NCBI RefSeq assembly: GCF_000189295.2
Contig: NC_016803.1
Coordinates: 2,040,001-2,072,000, forward strand
DNA from: Pseudodesulfovibrio mercurii
GTDB taxonomy: Bacteria > Desulfobacterota > Desulfovibrionia > Desulfovibrionales > Desulfovibrionaceae
Reading direction: 5' to 3'
DNA length: 32,000 bases
Positions 18,095 through 26,419 of this stretch are shown in pieces. A program made the translations under genes and the position numbers. Position 1 is the stretch's first letter, and each line of letters starts with the position of its first letter. The notes beneath the pieces were generated by a model that worked only from the letters and a program-made list of their open reading frames with translations, was not told the origin of the DNA and made no database searches.

Positions 18095-18261
18095 CGCGCG
18101 TTCCCGGCGGACTCCGGTCCCCGCCGGGCCCGCGCGCAGGAAACCGATCCGCCCCGCACGGCCCGGCCGGTCTTCGGTCACGGCCCTCCGGCCCCCGGCC
18201 CGTGCGCCCGGCGCGACACATTTTTCAACCCCCGCCCCCAGCGGGCGGCCGAGAGCGCGCA

Positions 18262-20379
18262 ATGTACGACAAATTAAACAAATTCGAACGGTTTCTCTTC
18301 GACTTCCTGTCCGTGGCCATGGTCCTGTTCTACTCCTGGTCGGCCATCTTCGAACCGGCGGCGACCCAGTACCACCGGGGCGTCTACGTGATCATTACGT
18401 ACATCCTCGTCTTCCTGCTCTACAAGTCCAGGAGCCGGATCATGCGCGTGGTGGACTACCTGCTCATGCTCGCCTCCCTGACCTCCGTGGGCTACTGGAT
18501 CCTGAACTTCGAGGTCATCAACTACCGCATCGGCCGGGAGGACGACTGGGACAAGGCCATGGCCATGATCGGCGTGCTGATCGGCATCGAACTGGCCCGC
18601 CGGGTGGTCGGCAACGTCTTCGTCATCATCGGCGTGCTCATGCTCCTGTTCGGCATGTACGGCGCGCACATGCCCGAGCTCATCGCCCACGCGGGCGCGA
18701 GCTTCCCGGACCTGTGCACCTCCATCTTCTACCGCTCGGACGGCGTGTTCGGCATCATGGCCAACGTGCTGGCCACCTACATCATCCTGTTCGTGCTCTT
18801 CGGGGCCTTCCTGGAGCAGTGCGGGGCACAGCGGTTCTTCATCGACTGGCCGCTGGCGGCCGTGGGCCACAAGATCGGCGGCCCGGCCAAGGTCTCGGTC
18901 ATCGCCTCGGGCCTGTTCGGGTCCATCTCGGGCTCGGCCATCGCCAACACCGTGTCCACCGGCTCCTTCACCATCCCGATGATGAAAAAGGCGGGCTTCA
19001 AGCCCCACGTGGCCGGCGGCATCGAACCCGCCGCCTCCATCGGCGGCATGTTCATGCCTCCGATCATGGGCGCGGGCGGGTTCATCATGGCCGAGATGAC
19101 CGGCCTGCCCTATTCGCAGATCATGCTCATCGCCATCTTCCCGGCGTTCATGTACTTCTTCTCCGTGTTCGTCATGGTCCACTACGAGGCCAAGAAAGAG
19201 AACATCGTGGGCGAGCGGTACAAGGAAAACGCCATGACCATCTTCAAGCGGGAATGGCTCTACACCCTGCCGCTCATCGGCATCACCATCTTCATGCTGG
19301 CCGGCTACTCGCCGGGCTATTCGGCCATCGTCGGCCTGGCCATCTGCATCGGCCTGTCCTTCAAGGACGACACCCAGCGCATCGATCCGACCCTGCTCAT
19401 CGTCATGGCCTTCATGGTCGTCTGCCCCTGGCTGGTCAAACTGGTCGGCCTGGTGGGCGGCAAGGAGGCGGCCACGGCGCTGCGGCCGTTCATGTCCGGC
19501 CGCATCCTCATGCTCTACGGCCTGATCGCGGCCGCCGCGTTCTTCTTCTACCGGAAGAAGAGCCGGTTGGACGACAGCGGCCAGACCTTCGTCGTGGTCG
19601 CCACGCTCATGGGCGTCTCCATCCTGATGACCCTGGTCCACACGGTCCCGGCCATGATCAGCCCGGAATTCGCCAAGTCCTTCAACGCGATATTCAACAA
19701 GGAAATAATCCTCCTGGTCGGTCTGCTGATCGCCGCGGCGGTCTTCGCCTATCCCAGGGGCGAACGGAACGAACTGCACGGGTTCGTCGTCGCGTCCCGC
19801 ATGGGCACCATCAACTCGCTCAAGATCGGCGCCACCGTCGGCGTCATCGGCATCATCATCGGCGTATTGACCTACTCCGGCCTGGTGCTGACCTTCGCCG
19901 ACATCGTCATCGAGCTGGCCCACGGCAACCTGATCTACACCATCCTGCTCATCGCCCTGGCCTCGCTGATCCTCGGCATGGGCGTGCCCGTCACCGCCGC
20001 CTACCTGATCACCGCCGTGGTCGCGGTCCCGGCCCTGACCCACCTGGGGGTCAACGAGGTCGCCGCGCACATGATCGTCTACTGGCTGTCCCAGGACTCC
20101 AACATCACCCCGCCGGTCTGCATCGCCGCCTTCGCGGGCGCGACCATCGCCGGGGCCAACATGTGGCGGACCGCGTTCACCTCGTTCAAGTTCGCTAAAT
20201 TCCTCTACCTGGCGCCGTTCCTGTTCGCCTACATCCCGGCGTTCTCCCTGGACGCCTCCGTGCAGCAGATCGTCATCTGGTTCGCCGTCATCACGGTCAT
20301 CGTCTACGTATACGCCTGGTTCATGAGCTTCATCTGGTTCAAGCCGCTGAAGCGCCTGCTCGGCCTGGCCCCGGCCTGA
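18262..20379 (+). CDS. TRAP transporter fused permease (TAXI-type, small+large membrane components)
   Basis: In-frame ATG at 18262. The 705-aa polytopic membrane protein has DctM-like segments, e.g. ASGLFGSISGSAIANTVSTGSFTIPMMKKAGF and GANMWRTAFTSFKF. Confidence 0.9.
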   Translation: MYDKLNKFERFLFDFLSVAMVLFYSWSAIFEPAATQYHRGVYVIITYILVFLLYKSRSRIMRVVDYLLMLASLTSVGYWILNFEVINYRIGREDDWDKAMAMIGVLIGIELARRVVGNVFVIIGVLMLLFGMYGAHMPELIAHAGASFPDLCTSIFYRSDGVFGIMANVLATYIILFVLFGAFLEQCGAQRFFIDWPLAAVGHKIGGPAKVSVIASGLFGSISGSAIANTVSTGSFTIPMMKKAGFKPHVAGGIEPAASIGGMFMPPIMGAGGFIMAEMTGLPYSQIMLIAIFPAFMYFFSVFVMVHYEAKKENIVGERYKENAMTIFKREWLYTLPLIGITIFMLAGYSPGYSAIVGLAICIGLSFKDDTQRIDPTLLIVMAFMVVCPWLVKLVGLVGGKEAATALRPFMSGRILMLYGLIAAAAFFFYRKKSRLDDSGQTFVVVATLMGVSILMTLVHTVPAMISPEFAKSFNAIFNKEIILLVGLLIAAAVFAYPRGERNELHGFVVASRMGTINSLKIGATVGVIGIIIGVLTYSGLVLTFADIVIELAHGNLIYTILLIALASLILGMGVPVTAAYLITAVVAVPALTHLGVNEVAAHMIVYWLSQDSNITPPVCIAAFAGATIAGANMWRTAFTSFKFAKFLYLAPFLFAYIPAFSLDASVQQIVIWFAVITVIVYVYAWFMSFIWFKPLKRLLGLAPA

Positions 20380-20398
20380 CCGTAACCCACGCAATCAC

Positions 20399-20430
20399 CC
20401 CGCAAGGGGCGGCAAGCCGCCCCTTGCGGG
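20399..20430 (+). other. 14-bp perfect stem-loop after the permease gene (terminator-like, no U-tract)
   Basis: cccgcaaggggcgg-caag-ccgccccttgcggg. Confidence 0.45.
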
Positions 20431-20574
20431 ATGCCCCCTGGCCCCCCCACCCCCTCTCTCACCATCCCAAACTTTTTGGCGCCGCTTCGCGGGGGGTGTA
20501 CTATTTAGTAAAATTACATTTTTTACACCACCGTTCCGGCACGCCGCCAACACACCGCCCCCCGCGTTCGCACG

Positions 20575-20666
20575 GCCCTGCCGAAGGCACACAAAAAGTT
20601 TGGGAGGGTCCAGGGAACCCTTTTCAAAGGGTTCCCTGGTCTCCCCGAAGGGGCCGCCGGAGGCAT
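20575..20666 (+). repeat. Intergenic repeat family R1, copy a
   Basis: Shares three blocks with 24508-24630: gccctgccgaaggcacaYaaaaagtttRgga, the palindrome core gggaaccctttt..aaagggttccc, and ggccgccggaggcat. The internal 13-bp palindrome is 20610-20622 / 20627-20639. Confidence 0.75.
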
Positions 20667-20846
20667 CCCCTTCGCTCCGCTCCTCGCCCCCCCACCCCTG
20701 ACCTGCCCGGCGGACTGTCGCGAGGGATTATTATTTGCATACGCAGGGGCGTGGTGCGTTGTATTCGCGGACGACGTGTGGCAAAAAGTCGTTCAAACCG
20801 GACGCTGCGCCCGACGCGGCGTGAATCCCTCGGTTGCGGAGGTCTG

Positions 20847-21863
20847 ATGTCCCGCCTGGCCGTCATCCTGATTTCGTTGTGCTGCCTGGCCGTTTTCGCG
20901 GTCACGGACTGCGCGTGGGACATGCCGGGCGAGGCGCACGCGACGCAACCCGCCAAGGTTCGGACCCTGTTGTTCAACGGCGGTCCGCGCGGCGGGACCT
21001 TCAACCACTTCGCCAACAAGATGGCGGCGGTCATCAGCGAGGACGTGCCCGGCCTGGACGTGCTGGCGCGGCAGTCGAGCGGGAGCGTGGACAATCTCCT
21101 GGCCCTGTGCGCGGGCACGGCGGACATGGCCATCGCCAATGCGGGCGACGCCTTTCTGGCGCGCACGGGCAAGTTGAACTGCGCGCACAAGAAATACGCC
21201 GATGTTCAGGCCCTGGCCTACTTGTACGGAGCTCCGGCGCAGCTGGTGGTGCGTGCGGACTCGGCCATCCACACGGTGCTCGACCTGCGCGGCAAGGTCC
21301 TGGCGGTGGGCAATCCGGGCTCGGGCGCGGCCCTGTCGGCCGAGCGGTTCTTCCGCCACCTCAAGCTCTGGGGACGGATCAGGCATCGGTCCGTGGGCTA
21401 TGCCGAGGCGGCGGCGGACTTCGCCTCGGGCGCGGTGGATGGGTTCTGGGTCCTGGCGGGCGTGCCCAACACGGCGGTCATCGAGGCGGCGGCGGGCGTG
21501 CCGGTGCGGCTGCTCGACCTGCACCAGGCGGCCACGGTCTCGAGCTTCTACCAGCTCTATCCCTTCTACTCGCAGGCGACCATCCCGGCCGGGACCTATA
21601 CGGGCCAGGACGAGCCCGTGCAGACCTTCCAGGACGCGGCCCTGTGGTGCGCGCGCACCGGGCTGGACAGCCGGATCGTGTACGACAGCCTCAAGGCGGT
21701 GTTTTCCGAAACCCGGCTCGAAGAGCTGCGCCAGGCCCACGGCGCGGCCCGGGACATGTCCCTCAAGACCGGCATCCGCAGCCTGTCCATCCCCCTGCAC
21801 CCCGGCGCGGTCCGCTTCTGGGACGAGCACCGGGTGGAGATTCCGCCCATCCTCATGCCCTAG
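20847..21863 (+). CDS. TAXI-family TRAP solute-binding protein (paralog 2)
   Basis: ATG at 20847 preceded by GGAGG. Signal peptide present. Shares YLYGAPAQLV, GNPGSGA, PLHPGAVRFW and the overall layout with the 17076 gene. Confidence 0.85.
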   Translation: MSRLAVILISLCCLAVFAVTDCAWDMPGEAHATQPAKVRTLLFNGGPRGGTFNHFANKMAAVISEDVPGLDVLARQSSGSVDNLLALCAGTADMAIANAGDAFLARTGKLNCAHKKYADVQALAYLYGAPAQLVVRADSAIHTVLDLRGKVLAVGNPGSGAALSAERFFRHLKLWGRIRHRSVGYAEAAADFASGAVDGFWVLAGVPNTAVIEAAAGVPVRLLDLHQAATVSSFYQLYPFYSQATIPAGTYTGQDEPVQTFQDAALWCARTGLDSRIVYDSLKAVFSETRLEELRQAHGAARDMSLKTGIRSLSIPLHPGAVRFWDEHRVEIPPILMP

Positions 21864-23523: not shown

Positions 23524-23651
23524 GATGCCGCTGCGCGGCGATTGTTGGATGATTTCGCCTCCGCCGGGCAGCACCAGCTCTTGGCGAGTCTTCAAGCCTT
23601 AGAGATGACAGCCGCGATAGGGTTCGCACCCTTGCATCCCGTTTATACGCC
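23524..23651 (+). repeat. Intergenic repeat family R2, copy a (with a ~48-nt internal insertion)
   Basis: Block 1, gatgccgctgcgcggcgattgttggatgatttcgcctccgccgggca (23524-23570), and block 2, agggttcgcacccttgcatcccgtttatacgcc (23619-23651), match 25439-25519 with only a few substitutions. Confidence 0.75.
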
Positions 23652-23897: not shown

Positions 23898-24470
23898 ATG
23901 CCCAGACTGTTCATCGGCATAGGCTTGCCGGACACTTACCGGCAATCGCTCAACGCCCTGACGAAGTGGCTTTCCAAACTTACCGATGCCAGCGTCAACT
24001 GGTCCCGGCCCGACACCTGGCACCTGACGCTGAAGTTCCTGGGCGAGACCGAGGAGGCGCGCATTCCGGCCATCCGGGAGGCGCTGGCCGCCATCCATTT
24101 TCCCGCCTTCCCCGTGCAGGCCGGGGGCACGGGCGCGTTCCCGGACGCGAAACGCCCCAAGGTCCTCTGGCTCGGCCTGGTCCAGGGCGGGGAGCAGACC
24201 GCGACCCTGGCCCGGTCCATCGAGGACGCCTTGACGGCCATCGGCATCCCGCGCGAGAAAAAGCCCTTCCGCCCGCACCTGACCCTCGGCCGCATCAGAA
24301 AACCCGCCCCCGGCGACTGGCAACCCATCCTCGACGCTGCGGCCGCACAGGAATGGCCGCCCTTCACCGTCCCCCACTTCACCCTCTGGCAGAGCGTACT
24401 CACCCCGGAAGGAGCCATCCACACCCCCCTGGCCGCATTCCCCGCCCAACAAGTTCAACCTCCGCTTTAA
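23898..24470 (+). CDS. thpR: RNA 2',3'-cyclic phosphodiesterase (2H phosphoesterase, LigT/ThpR)
   Basis: Two HxT motifs at the expected spacing: WHLTLKF and PHLTLGR. Confidence 0.85.
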   Translation: MPRLFIGIGLPDTYRQSLNALTKWLSKLTDASVNWSRPDTWHLTLKFLGETEEARIPAIREALAAIHFPAFPVQAGGTGAFPDAKRPKVLWLGLVQGGEQTATLARSIEDALTAIGIPREKKPFRPHLTLGRIRKPAPGDWQPILDAAAAQEWPPFTVPHFTLWQSVLTPEGAIHTPLAAFPAQQVQPPL

Positions 24471-24507
24471 AAACGACCAAAAGCGCACGCGCCCACGCGG
24501 ACGCACG

Positions 24508-24630
24508 CCCCTGCCGAAGGCACATAAAAAGTTTAGGAAGGAAGAGAGGATGGGGGTCCGGGGGAAGGGGAGAAGGGAACCCTTTTCTCAAAGGGTTCCC
24601 TTCTCCCCTTCCCCCGGCCGCCGGAGGCAT
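24508..24630 (+). repeat. Intergenic repeat family R1, copy b, containing a 24-bp perfect palindrome
   Basis: Same three blocks as 20575-20666. The palindrome is ggggaaggggagaagggaaccctt (24561-24584) / aagggttcccttctccccttcccc (24591-24614). The copy abuts the xthA stop codon. Confidence 0.8.
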
Positions 24631-24633
24631 TCT

Positions 24634-25401
24634 TTAAACGTCGATCTCCACGCCGATGGGGCAGTGGTCGGAGCCGAGGACGTCGGGTTCGATCCAGGCG
24701 CGGACGACCTTGTCCTTGAGTTCCTCGGACACGAAGAAGTAGTCGATGCGCCATCCGGCGTTGTTCTTGCGGGCGTTGAAGCGGTAGGACCACCAGGAGT
24801 AGTGGTGCGGGCCGTCCTCGAACAGGCGGAAGGTGTCCACGTAGCCGTGTTCGATGAACTTGTCGATCCAGGCGCGTTCCACGGGCAGGAACCCGGACCG
24901 TTCGCTGTTGGCCTTGGGGTTCTTGAGGTCGATTTCCCGGTGCGCGGTGTTGAAGTCGCCGCCGACCACGATGGGCTTGGTCCGGCGCAACGCCTGGGCG
25001 TGCTCCAGAAAGGTGTCGTAGAAGCCCATCTTGAAATCCAGCCGCTCGTCCGACATCTGGCCGTTGGGAAAATAGATGTTGAACAGGTGGAAGTCCGGGT
25101 ATTCGAGATGCAGCACCCGGCCCTCGTCACGGAACCGGTCGTCGGGCAAGCCCGTGTCCCAGCGGATGGGCTCGGGATTGGCGAAGCAGGCCACCCCGGA
25201 ATAGCCCTTCTTTTTCTTGGACCAGTTCCAGTAGTGGTTGGAAAAGGAATCCGGCTCGCGCTCGTCCAGGGCCAGCTGGTCCGGCTCGACCTTGGTCTCC
25301 TGCAACATGACCACGTCGCCGCCGCAACCGTCCAGCCAGTCGCGGAAATCCTTCTTGAGCACCGCCCGGTACCCGTTGACGTTCCAGGAATAGATGATCA
25401 T
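24634..25401 (-). CDS. xthA: Exodeoxyribonuclease III
   Basis: ATG at 25401 preceded by AGGAGAAAG. MIIYSWNVNG..., VVMLQETK, GGDFNTAH and GSDHCPIGVEI are EEP/ExoIII motifs. The 466-aa track ORF is an upstream read-through. Confidence 0.9.
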   Translation of the reverse strand: MIIYSWNVNGYRAVLKKDFRDWLDGCGGDVVMLQETKVEPDQLALDEREPDSFSNHYWNWSKKKKGYSGVACFANPEPIRWDTGLPDDRFRDEGRVLHLEYPDFHLFNIYFPNGQMSDERLDFKMGFYDTFLEHAQALRRTKPIVVGGDFNTAHREIDLKNPKANSERSGFLPVERAWIDKFIEHGYVDTFRLFEDGPHHYSWWSYRFNARKNNAGWRIDYFFVSEELKDKVVRAWIEPDVLGSDHCPIGVEIDV

Positions 25402-25438
25402 GGGGCTTTCTCCTAGTAAAGAGGGGAAATCGGGAGGG

Positions 25439-25519
25439 GAATGCCGCTGCGCGGCGATGGTCGGATGATTTCGCCTCCGGCGGGCAAGGGTTCGCACCCT
25501 TGCATCCCGTTTGTGCGCC
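25439..25519 (+). repeat. Intergenic repeat family R2, copy b
   Basis: gaatgccgctgcgcggcgatggtcggatgatttcgcctccggcgggca + agggttcgcacccttgcatcccgtttgtgcgcc. Same orientation as copy a. Confidence 0.75.
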
Positions 25520-25557
25520 TGCGGCGCAAGGTGTTGCGCTTCGCGAGGGAGGGGGGT

Positions 25558-25593
25558 GAAAAAACGAAGGGGAACCGGCCGGGCCGATTCCCC
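25558..25593 (-). terminator. Rho-independent terminator after the 29-aa ORF
   Basis: The minus strand reads GGGGAATCGGCCCGGCCGGTTCCCC (10-bp stem) followed by TTCGTTTTTT. Confidence 0.6.
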
Positions 25594-25616
25594 TGATGCC
25601 GCGTGCGCGGCGAAAA

Positions 25617-25706
25617 CTAGTGCTCGTTGGGGGTGCTGATCTTGATCATGACCAGCGCGGCGATGGTCAGACACAGCCCCAGGAAAAACCAGAAATAACC
25701 CATCAT
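25617..25706 (-). CDS. Unlisted 29-aa hydrophobic small protein MMGYFWFFLGLCLTIAALVMIKISTPNEH (CydX/AppX-like N-terminus?)
   Basis: Hand translation of the minus strand. GGAGGA lies 7 nt upstream of the ATG ATG. A single TM helix is predicted. Its own terminator is at 25558-25593. It is below the length cut-off of the supplied ORF track. Confidence 0.5.
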   Translation of the reverse strand: MMGYFWFFLGLCLTIAALVMIKISTPNEH

Positions 25707-25831
25707 GTTCGCATCCTCCACGTATGTAAGCAATTGTTGTCTTGCTCATAGCAGAAACCCGGAGGGAAGGAAAGTACGGCGGCCCGGAGAAATTCCCCGG
25801 ACCGCCTTTCGGTTTCCGTATGGAGCGGCGG

Positions 25832-26419
25832 CTAGGCTTCGATCCGGGTGCCGAGCACCTTGAGGAACTTGGCCATCCACTCGGGATGGGCGGGCCAGGC
25901 CGGGGCGGTGACGATGTTGCCGTCCGCGCAGGCGTTGGAGGCCGTGGCGTTGACCTCGCACCAGGTGGCCCCGGCGCCGTCGATGTCCGGCTTGACCGCC
26001 GGGTAGGCCGTGCAGGTCTTGCCCTTGATGACATCGGCCGCGGTCAGGATCTGCGGGCCATGACAGATGGCCGCGATGGGCTTGCCCGCGTTCGCGAAGT
26101 GCCGCACGCACTTGATCACGTCCGGGTTCAGGCGCAGGTATTCCGGGGCGCGGCCGCCGGGGATGACCAGGGCGTCGTAGTCCTCGGGCTTGATCTCCTC
26201 GAAGGTGGTGGTCACCCCGAAGTTGTGGCCCGGTTTTTCGGAGTAGGTCTGGTGCCCCTCGAAGTCGTGCACGGCCGTGGCCACGAACTCGCCCGCCTTC
26301 TTGCCGGGGCAGACGGTGTGGACGGTGTGGCCGACCATCAGAAGCATCTGAAAGGGAACCATGGCCTCGTAGTCCTCCACGAAGTCGCCGACCAGCATCA
26401 GTATTTTCTTGGCAGCCAT
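25832..26419 (-). CDS. DJ-1/PfpI-family protein (type 1 glutamine amidotransferase-like fold)
   Basis: ATG at 26419 preceded by GGAGGAAG. Nucleophile elbow AAICHGPQIL, plus DALVIPGGRAPE. Confidence 0.9.
   Translation of the reverse strand: MAAKKILMLVGDFVEDYEAMVPFQMLLMVGHTVHTVCPGKKAGEFVATAVHDFEGHQTYSEKPGHNFGVTTTFEEIKPEDYDALVIPGGRAPEYLRLNPDVIKCVRHFANAGKPIAAICHGPQILTAADVIKGKTCTAYPAVKPDIDGAGATWCEVNATASNACADGNIVTAPAWPAHPEWMAKFLKVLGTRIEA

Follow-up and report, generated by a model that had tools for sequence, protein, structure and literature searches.

Modular palindromic repeats at gene ends in Pseudodesulfovibrio mercurii: two sites in one genomic window and their relatives

What fills the gap between a permease gene and the following binding-protein gene of Pseudodesulfovibrio mercurii, and why does part of it recur beyond the next genes? 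We analysed a stretch of 32,000 nt (contig NC_016803.1, positions 2,040,001 to 2,072,000, forward strand; hereafter the window, numbered from its first letter). An earlier note, made from the letters alone, had described the gap as a composite of four elements resembling REP/BIME or MITE sequences. The genes that frame the two repeat sites are as follows.

18202-20379: fused TRAP/TAXI permease gene (Pfam DctM), upstream of the permease-SBP2 gap
20380-20846: permease-SBP2 gap, 467 nt
20847: ATG start codon of the second TAXI binding-protein gene (SBP2), which starts here and not at the long-ORF start 20424
23898-24470, plus strand: LigT-like gene, left flank of the second repeat site
24634-25398, minus strand: xth-like endonuclease/exonuclease/phosphatase (EEP) gene, stop codon 24634-24636; the protein has 255 aa in relatives

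Two open reading frames, 20424-21863 and 24634-26034, run past the true gene bounds and through the repeats. P. hydrargyri, P. methanolicus and D. caledoniensis share the gene order SpoU - SBP1 - permease - SBP2 - malic enzyme - LigT - xth, and all species compared keep a TTATAAT-like box some 110 nt ahead of the start codon of SBP2. Together with motifs further downstream, this box is likely to be the SBP2 gene's own promoter and operator. Since it is conserved 3' of the repeat patch, the patch sits between two transcription units. In the window, positions 20727-20736 read gattattatt, with TTATAAT at the matching place in sister species, where GCGTTGTCTTA and TGGCAAA are also conserved further downstream of the box. 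A sigma-54 promoter at 20724-20738 was considered and rejected: its GG-N10-GC spacing is lost in sister species, which conserve the TTATAAT box instead.

The window carries three repeat units, of which those at 20548-20666 and 24501-24630 are full and the one at 20434-20492 is partial and inverted; their parts are listed here.

20399-20430, plus strand: hairpin (14-bp stem, 4-nt loop) lying 19 nt 3' of the permease stop codon, with no T-run after it
20434-20478, plus strand: C-rich tail ending CCCAAACTTTTTG, right-arm remnant of a B-type long-palindrome unit, in permease sense
20482-20492, plus strand: mini-hairpin CCGC-TTC-GCGG, counterpart of TGCC-GAA-GGCA in the facing unit
20495-20529: AT-rich core, ends GGTGTA/TACACC; a unique spacer that separates the facing units
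20548-20666, plus strand: complete A-type unit (copy A), beginning with a 5' extension
20579-20589: copy A mini-hairpin TGCC-GAA-GGCA
20593-20605: copy A box AAAAAGTTTGGGA
20610-20639: copy A hairpin-1
20643-20653: copy A second mini-hairpin CCCC-GAA-GGGG
20652-20666: copy A cap GGCCGCCGGAGGCAT
24478-24508, minus strand: terminator-like hairpin from the terminator scan (stem 24508-24485, then CTTTTGG), at the distal end of copy B
24501-24630, plus strand: B-type unit (copy B), in the 3' region of the minus-strand xth-like gene
24512-24522: copy B mini-hairpin
24526-24538: copy B box AAAAAGTTTAGGA
24558-24617: copy B 28-bp hairpin, an inverted repeat
24616-24630: copy B cap

All the individual elements reported in the earlier note are present at the positions given there. 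The perfect hairpin at 20399-20430 folds as described (14-bp stem, 4-nt loop), tcccaaactttttg (20465-20478) recurs as an exact reverse complement at 20592-20605, the AT-rich core lies inside this inverted pair, the palindrome at 20610-20639 has 13-bp arms and a 4-nt loop, and the block GGCCGCCGGAGGCAT is exact at 20652-20666 and again at 24616-24630. The proposed recurrence of the right half near 24508-24630 is true of the block order, which is the same on the plus strand, and CCTGCCGAAGGCACA is exact at 20577-20591 and 24510-24524; it does not extend to the second hairpin, which is much longer at the second site (28-bp stem), the copy A and copy B hairpins sharing only the innermost GGGAACCCTTTT..AAAGGGTTCCC. 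What finds no support is the reading of the 14-nt pair and the AT-rich core as one MITE-like element, as the pair consists of the AAAAAGTTTGGG boxes of two opposed units. The core itself has no match in ~0.5 Mb of related loci, and the spacers of other doublets are unrelated to it. The hairpin at 20399-20430, which had been counted as part of the repeat, is likewise unique, with no match in the same ~0.5 Mb. It aligns with the permease terminator of P. methanolicus (A-tract/GGGGGGCGG..CCGCCCCCC/T-tract) and is probably the permease operon's own 3' hairpin, standing outside the repeat family. The C-rich tail at 20434-20478, on the other hand, aligns with B-type units that are intact at this site in D. 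caledoniensis and P. methanolicus, and the mini-hairpin motif that it precedes follows CCTAAACTTTTT in more than ten loci.

The shared blocks of the window are far above chance. The 13-mer AAAAAGTTTGGGA, allowing up to two mismatches, occurs three times in the window against 0.19 expected, a count reached in 0 of 100 shuffles, and the single-stranded fold of 20380-20700 has a z-score of -8.9 against shuffles. Under a covariance model made from 28 related copies, the score is 100.6 bits for 20568-20639, 53.4 bits for 24501-24603 and 22.1 bits (E = 2e-4) for the inverted partial copy (20461-20503, minus strand). By BLAST, copy A matches over 15 loci with 80-99% identity. Given the dozens of copies in other genomes and metagenomes, there is next to no chance that the blocks are a local coincidence or a private duplication that belongs to no family.

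The distribution of these copies was obtained by scanning one genome per species for the 20-base pattern GCCGAAGGC-N4-AAAAAGTTT-NGG, which returned 48 loci. Pseudodesulfovibrio karagichevae accounts for 25 matches at 24 loci and 'Desulfovibrio caledoniensis' lm2024 for nine matches at eight loci; a Desulfovibrionaceae MAG and a MAG labelled Thermoguttaceae have one locus each, a MAG labelled Clostridia has ten, and four are evident chance matches. A metagenome scan added 25 loci, mostly Pseudodesulfovibrio-like with 59-65% GC. When the window was compared with the scan loci by BLAST, only its two repeat sites matched, apart from true synteny with one P. karagichevae contig. The binding protein encoded in the window is 100% identical to a protein listed under Pseudodesulfovibrio mercurii. 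Because dozens of copies exist in relatives and are retained at the same sites in sister species, conserved as units and not confined to the two seen in the window, the earlier note's suggestion of a dispersed modular intergenic repeat of the REP/BIME/MITE kind stands. Searches of the literature, by sequence and by organism plus REP/MITE, found no description of the repeat family in the library they covered. We conclude that this hairpin-rich modular family is apparently undescribed before, and that it is a fresh instance of a well-known bacterial repeat kind, with no new type of system.

The Thermoguttaceae-labelled locus (L015, contig CAXXFQ010000019.1, 786 kb) holds at least two typical units at 64% GC, representing either a true occurrence outside Desulfovibrionaceae or a binning or labelling error; MAG labels, here and for 'Clostridia', are no proof of host. 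Several draft contigs stop inside family repeats (L044 at both ends, L001, L046, L017, L063 and L064), which suggests that the repeats break short-read assemblies. A blastn search of PLSDB for a plasmid origin gave no match, and a phage origin of the A-box was discarded, its single viral match being a chance one inside a coding region. The cap (ATGCCTCCGGCGGCC) followed by a perfect hairpin was also seen in viral contigs of 57-68% GC (L084, L086, L087, L088, L089, L096, L100 and L102), mostly right after a stop codon; low-GC viral matches of the same scan may be due to chance.

Read along the plus strand of the window, a family unit begins with a GC-rich lead-in (..CGCACGCCCCT), the mini-hairpin TGCC-GAA-GGCA, whose loop is 3 nt long, and a spacer of 3-5 nt. 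These are followed by the box AAAAAGTTTRGG, a purine-rich stretch, a perfect hairpin with a TTTTCAAA-like loop and, optionally, extra modules (CGGGGTCCGGGGCAGCGCCCCGG, CCGTCGGAGACGCCCGCCCGGCGAGGGCC, CCCCGAAGGGG), and the unit closes with the cap GCCGCCGGAGGCAT and then pyrimidines. Read in the other direction, from a gene end, the same unit presents a purine-rich run (consensus about GGRRGAATGCCTCCGGCGG) and the cap ATGCCTCCGGCGG, at least one perfect hairpin, a C-rich tail ending CCCAAACTTTTT and a mini-hairpin with a 3-4 bp stem and a 3-nt loop. The B-type form is a single long palindrome, from AAAAAGTTTAGGAAGG... to ...CCTTCCTAAACTTTTT, complete in L032; in full it consists of an A-tract, a long stem and a T-tract, and in window copy B the right arm is truncated and closed by a cap. 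Units are ~70-130 nt long, and doublets reach ~600 nt.

Compensatory changes preserve the pairing of the stems. Among 28 aligned copies, 99.6% of the proposed-pair cells hold standard pairs, 7 of 17 pairs have changed on both sides (55 cells), and 0 of 500 shuffles do as well in paired fraction or in covariation score; if the partner is shifted by one column, pairing falls to ~60%. At least seven perfect stem variants occur (CCAGGG, CTTAAG, CTCAAG, CCAAAG, CCAGAG, CCAGGGGG and CCAGGGGGG). Copies found via the hairpin, and not via the searched pattern, give a less biased look at the left half: in these the mini-hairpin stem varies with compensation (TGCC/GGCA, CGCC/GGCG, CCGC/GCGG), while the AAAAAGTTT box changes little. 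Loops of the mini-hairpins are mostly GNA (GAA, GCA, GGA; one ACA) and closed by C-G, and among 72 family hairpins 20 have a 3-nt and 47 a 4-nt loop. Mismatches in the stems show no strand asymmetry (16 G.T against 12 A.C, p = 0.57), so that there is no support for selection on one RNA strand, and what is kept may be RNA, single-stranded DNA or a symmetric duplex site. Rfam at its gathering threshold gave 0 matches in the window and four loci, and a known RNA family was dismissed, an E-value threshold yielding only miRNA-precursor-like hairpin look-alikes far below that level. A small protein starting from the cap ATG was rejected as well: the downstream frames are not the same in copies A and B, and the loops differ in length by numbers not divisible by three.

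Units are placed preferentially at gene 3' ends. Half of the bona fide caps (39 of 78) lie a median of 8 nt (range 2-40) past the stop codon of a long high-GC3 ORF reading into the cap, and another 7 of the 78 follow a T-run. Among 20 sites that could be classified with crude gene calls, 12 are convergent, seven tandem and one divergent. Copy B agrees with this pattern, its cap ending 3 nt from the xth stop codon; the copy A cap faces the promoter region of the next gene and not a gene end. A T-run within 0-2 nt of a GC-rich hairpin is found at 24508-24485 on the minus strand and in the centre of long doublets, and is missing at 20399-20430, at hairpin-1 (20610-20639) and at the 28-bp hairpin. 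The minus-strand hairpin 24508-24478 with its CTTTTGG is conserved in five species and likely marks the end of the xth-like transcript. Hairpin-1 is not a canonical intrinsic terminator, because 12 nt separate it from a T-run. The lack of an adjacent T-run at most hairpins and the orientation of copy A towards a promoter region speak against a pure terminator role and, as some units lie 3' of an already complete terminator, termination cannot be the general purpose of the units.

How these sites have changed over time can be followed in sister species, since D. caledoniensis, P. karagichevae, P. methanolicus and P. hydrargyri all have family sequence at the two window sites, though modules have been deleted or swapped. 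In D. caledoniensis the permease-SBP2 gap holds a complete doublet, which runs from a cap through a B-type palindrome, CCCAAACTTTTT, a mini-hairpin and a long-hairpin centre to a second half composed of a mini-hairpin, box, hairpin-1, two more hairpins and a cap. From the box to the end of hairpin-1, D. caledoniensis agrees with the window at all 48 nt, but its mini-hairpin is CGCC-GCA-GGCG where the window has TGCC-GAA-GGCA. P. methanolicus has a canonical terminator and then a B-type unit, with no A-type unit; P. karagichevae has a B-type unit at a contig end; P. hydrargyri retains unit remnants only. Given these sister-species states, the window arrangement is an old doublet that has decayed, and not a fresh insertion. 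In P. hydrargyri a 1.3-kb low-GC insertion with an ORF lies beside the remnants (L103:3700-4650).

At the LigT-xth gap the lead-in, mini-hairpin, box and left arm are kept in five species, and the whole hairpin is lost in two. Elsewhere, orthologous sites of P. karagichevae, D. caledoniensis and metagenomes differ by one-arm deletions and module swaps within flanks that are 90-98% identical. Among five species, identity is 85-95% in the A-box half and 67-85% in the adjacent spacer. Fourfold sites of the malic-enzyme gene give no useful yardstick for this constraint, because that gene combines extreme codon bias with 95-97% identity across species. Insertion sequences of the IS5 family and IS1595-like type were seen inside units, with ends that differ from those of the units. 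One IS5-family element of D. caledoniensis (L035:5372-6176; ends GGGTCTGTCGACATTC), confirmed by Pfam DUF4096 and DDE domains, is inserted at the central TTAA of hairpin-1 with a TA duplication, and the hairpin is intact in the P. karagichevae ortholog L042. Another D. caledoniensis sequence (L038, ~2250-2600, minus orientation), which by eye we take to be the C-terminus of an IS1595-family transposase, replaces the left part of the B-type palindrome found in P. karagichevae L008.

These comparisons bear on whether the units act as functional RNAs, that is, small RNAs derived from 3' UTRs or RNA elements that bind a protein, the recognition site being AAAAAGUUU or CCUCCGGCGG. The strong covariation of the stems, the near invariance of box and cap over copies and species, the position of the cap 2-26 nt past stop codons and the higher identity of the A-box half are what such a role would predict. 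However, whole hairpins are lost or exchanged at orthologous sites while the locus is kept, orientation to the neighbouring genes is not fixed, G.U pairs occur without strand asymmetry, no Rfam family corresponds, and the invariance of the box is partly circular, because the box belonged to the search pattern. We consider a functional RNA of this kind very unlikely.

The inverted doublet layout seen in the window occurs at more than ten other loci with unrelated spacers. At nine or more loci, inverted caps with their arms stand at both ends of composites of 490-615 nt, forming terminal inverted repeats, and the centre of these, ~80% identical, contains, besides a long covarying hairpin, a bidirectional terminator (AAAAAACGG..stem..GTTTTTT). 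Composites of such similar length and conserved interior could be interpreted as classical MITEs: a deleted insertion sequence with inverted repeats ending ATGCCTCCGGCGG, mobilised by a DDE transposase in trans, of which the single units would be broken copies. Consistent with this, copy A is missing from the alignable part of the P. karagichevae ortholog. The target-site duplications that the earlier note had proposed to look for are, however, not there: no direct repeat flanks the complete doublets consistently, the best around nine composites being of 3-5 nt at scattered offsets. Nor does any transposase recur beside units in ~0.35 Mb, the search for a recurrent neighbour gene returning high-identity protein pairs that are all sister-species orthologs. 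With the window sites ancient and common to five species, not recent insertions, and with modules swapped at fixed sites, a classical MITE origin seems to us quite unlikely.

Movement as single-stranded DNA, by a RAYT or another HUH tyrosine transposase reading the hairpins and invariant boxes as in REPINs, would fit the inverted doublets, the perfect stems with minimal loops, the missing target-site duplication and the lack of strand bias in wobble mismatches. The mini-hairpins, with their C-G-closed GNA loops, resemble the very stable DNA hairpin d(GCGAAGC). Against this, the RAYT search suggested in the earlier note came out negative (tblastn with E. coli RayT against 0.52 Mb of loci, best E-value 0.53), a conserved GTAG-like tetranucleotide at the foot of the palindrome is absent from the family alignment, in which the conserved flanks are AAAAAGTTTRGG and GCCGCCGGAGGCAT, and the units are much longer and more modular than REPs. 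We therefore regard a REPIN-type element as unlikely.

A related repeat exists at lower GC. The 'Clostridia' MAG (40-48% GC) and a camel-gut contig carry a multi-hairpin repeat, GCCGAAGGCAAATAAAAAGTTTCGG followed by TCAAGCCTTTTCAAAGGCTTG and GGGGCAAAGCCCC (L001, L010, L013, L019, L026, L029, L031, L033, L045, L046 and L068), in which the mini-hairpin and AAAAAGTTT box are near-identical to those of the main family and the next two hairpins similar. Outside the searched pattern, local scores of these copies reach 41 against 12.3 ± 2.1 (0 of 2000 shuffles), and the covariance model gives them 32-37 bits. The similarity may reflect shared descent, horizontal spread or a common constraint. They often lie directly upstream of gene starts, which counts against reading the units as 3' barriers. 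It may be that the units are mobile 3'-end cassettes that cross phylum boundaries, a proposition we hold to be quite doubtful. If true, it would mean that a sequence-specific agent reading box and cap spreads or re-templates the modules, or that a conserved host factor binds them; a single-strand-DNA enzyme is a candidate for such an agent because of the minimal loops and the lack of strand bias. The link to a low-GC lineage or to viral contigs matters only if a shared mobilising or binding factor is found.

A second repeat, R2 (GGGGAATGCCGCTGCGCGGCGATGGTCGGATGATTTCGCCTCCGGCGGGCAAGGGTTCGCACCCTTGC...GCGCCTGCGGCGC), was noticed in the window at 23525-23644 and 25425-25560, and also in L023, L036, L052 and L055. 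It shares the GGGGAATGCC start, the GCCTCCGGCGG motif and 3-nt-loop mini-hairpins with the main family. The R2 copy that separates the xth-like gene from the DJ-1-like gene persists there in three sister species, in one of them with an internal insertion.

Taken together, we think it probable that the region is a patch of lineage-wide, non-coding, modular palindromic repeats, a REP/BIME-like mosaic in 3' untranslated and inter-operon DNA that serves as a hairpin barrier/terminator module. Family membership, conservation of structure, 3'-end placement, retention at orthologous sites and turnover of whole modules are directly supported. The units are placed in the REP/BIME-, BOX- and MITE-like class because of their many copies, absence of coding capacity, mosaic build and inverted doublets, and also because of their compensated stems, position at gene 3' ends and use as insertion-sequence landing sites. 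On this reading, the SBP1-permease operon would be followed by its own hairpin, a decayed sense unit, the unique AT-rich spacer and a full facing unit, and copy B, situated where two genes converge, would make up the 3' untranslated region of the xth-like one. The units would be transcribed as 3' tails of the upstream gene, where, by analogy with E. coli REP/BIME, their stable stems could block 3' exonucleases in the RNA and could slow or stop polymerases and so insulate neighbouring transcription units. Copies may persist and stay alike through recombination or gene conversion and through hairpin-driven repair or slippage.

For annotation, the units explain long 'empty' intergenic stretches, spurious ORF extensions and draft contig breaks in Pseudodesulfovibrio. 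They also offer a compact system in which to study how palindromic mosaics stay perfect and alike while modules turn over at fixed sites, and a way to ask if these modules influence 3' ends and operon insulation in sulfate reducers, a model mercury methylator among them.

Several known systems share parts of this build. Compared with intrinsic terminators, including bidirectional ones, the likeness lies in the A-tract/stem/T-tract of the B-type form and in the hairpin with T-run in the centre of long doublets and at the distal end of copy B; unlike them, most family hairpins have no direct T-run, stems reach 28 bp and more, and the sequences are repeated genome-wide and not locally evolved. 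Bacterial MITEs such as Correia/NEMIS of Neisseria are likewise short, non-coding and bounded by inverted ends, and we count it as a further likeness that they are often co-transcribed with neighbouring genes and form long RNA hairpins. They differ from the present family, in which no target-site duplication or cognate insertion sequence was found, single arms are common and modules are exchanged at fixed sites. The BOX elements of Streptococcus pneumoniae (boxA-boxB(n)-boxC) combine fixed terminal modules with variable internal hairpin modules in the same way, and are similarly non-coding, dispersed and without a known transposase; here, however, the host is another and there is a strong preference for positions right after stop codons, and no relation in sequence is expected. 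REP/BIME elements of Enterobacteria and REPINs of Pseudomonas contrast with the present units, which are longer, carry the fixed cap ATGCCTCCGGCGG and the fixed box AAAAAGTTTRGG, and have neither a GTAG-type motif nor a RAYT in 0.52 Mb of loci. Like our units, they are extragenic palindromes that occur in many copies at gene 3' ends and between convergent genes, form doublets and mosaics of alternating orientation, have compensated stems and act as insertion-sequence targets, and the role proposed for them is likewise protection of mRNA 3' ends and attenuation of transcription.
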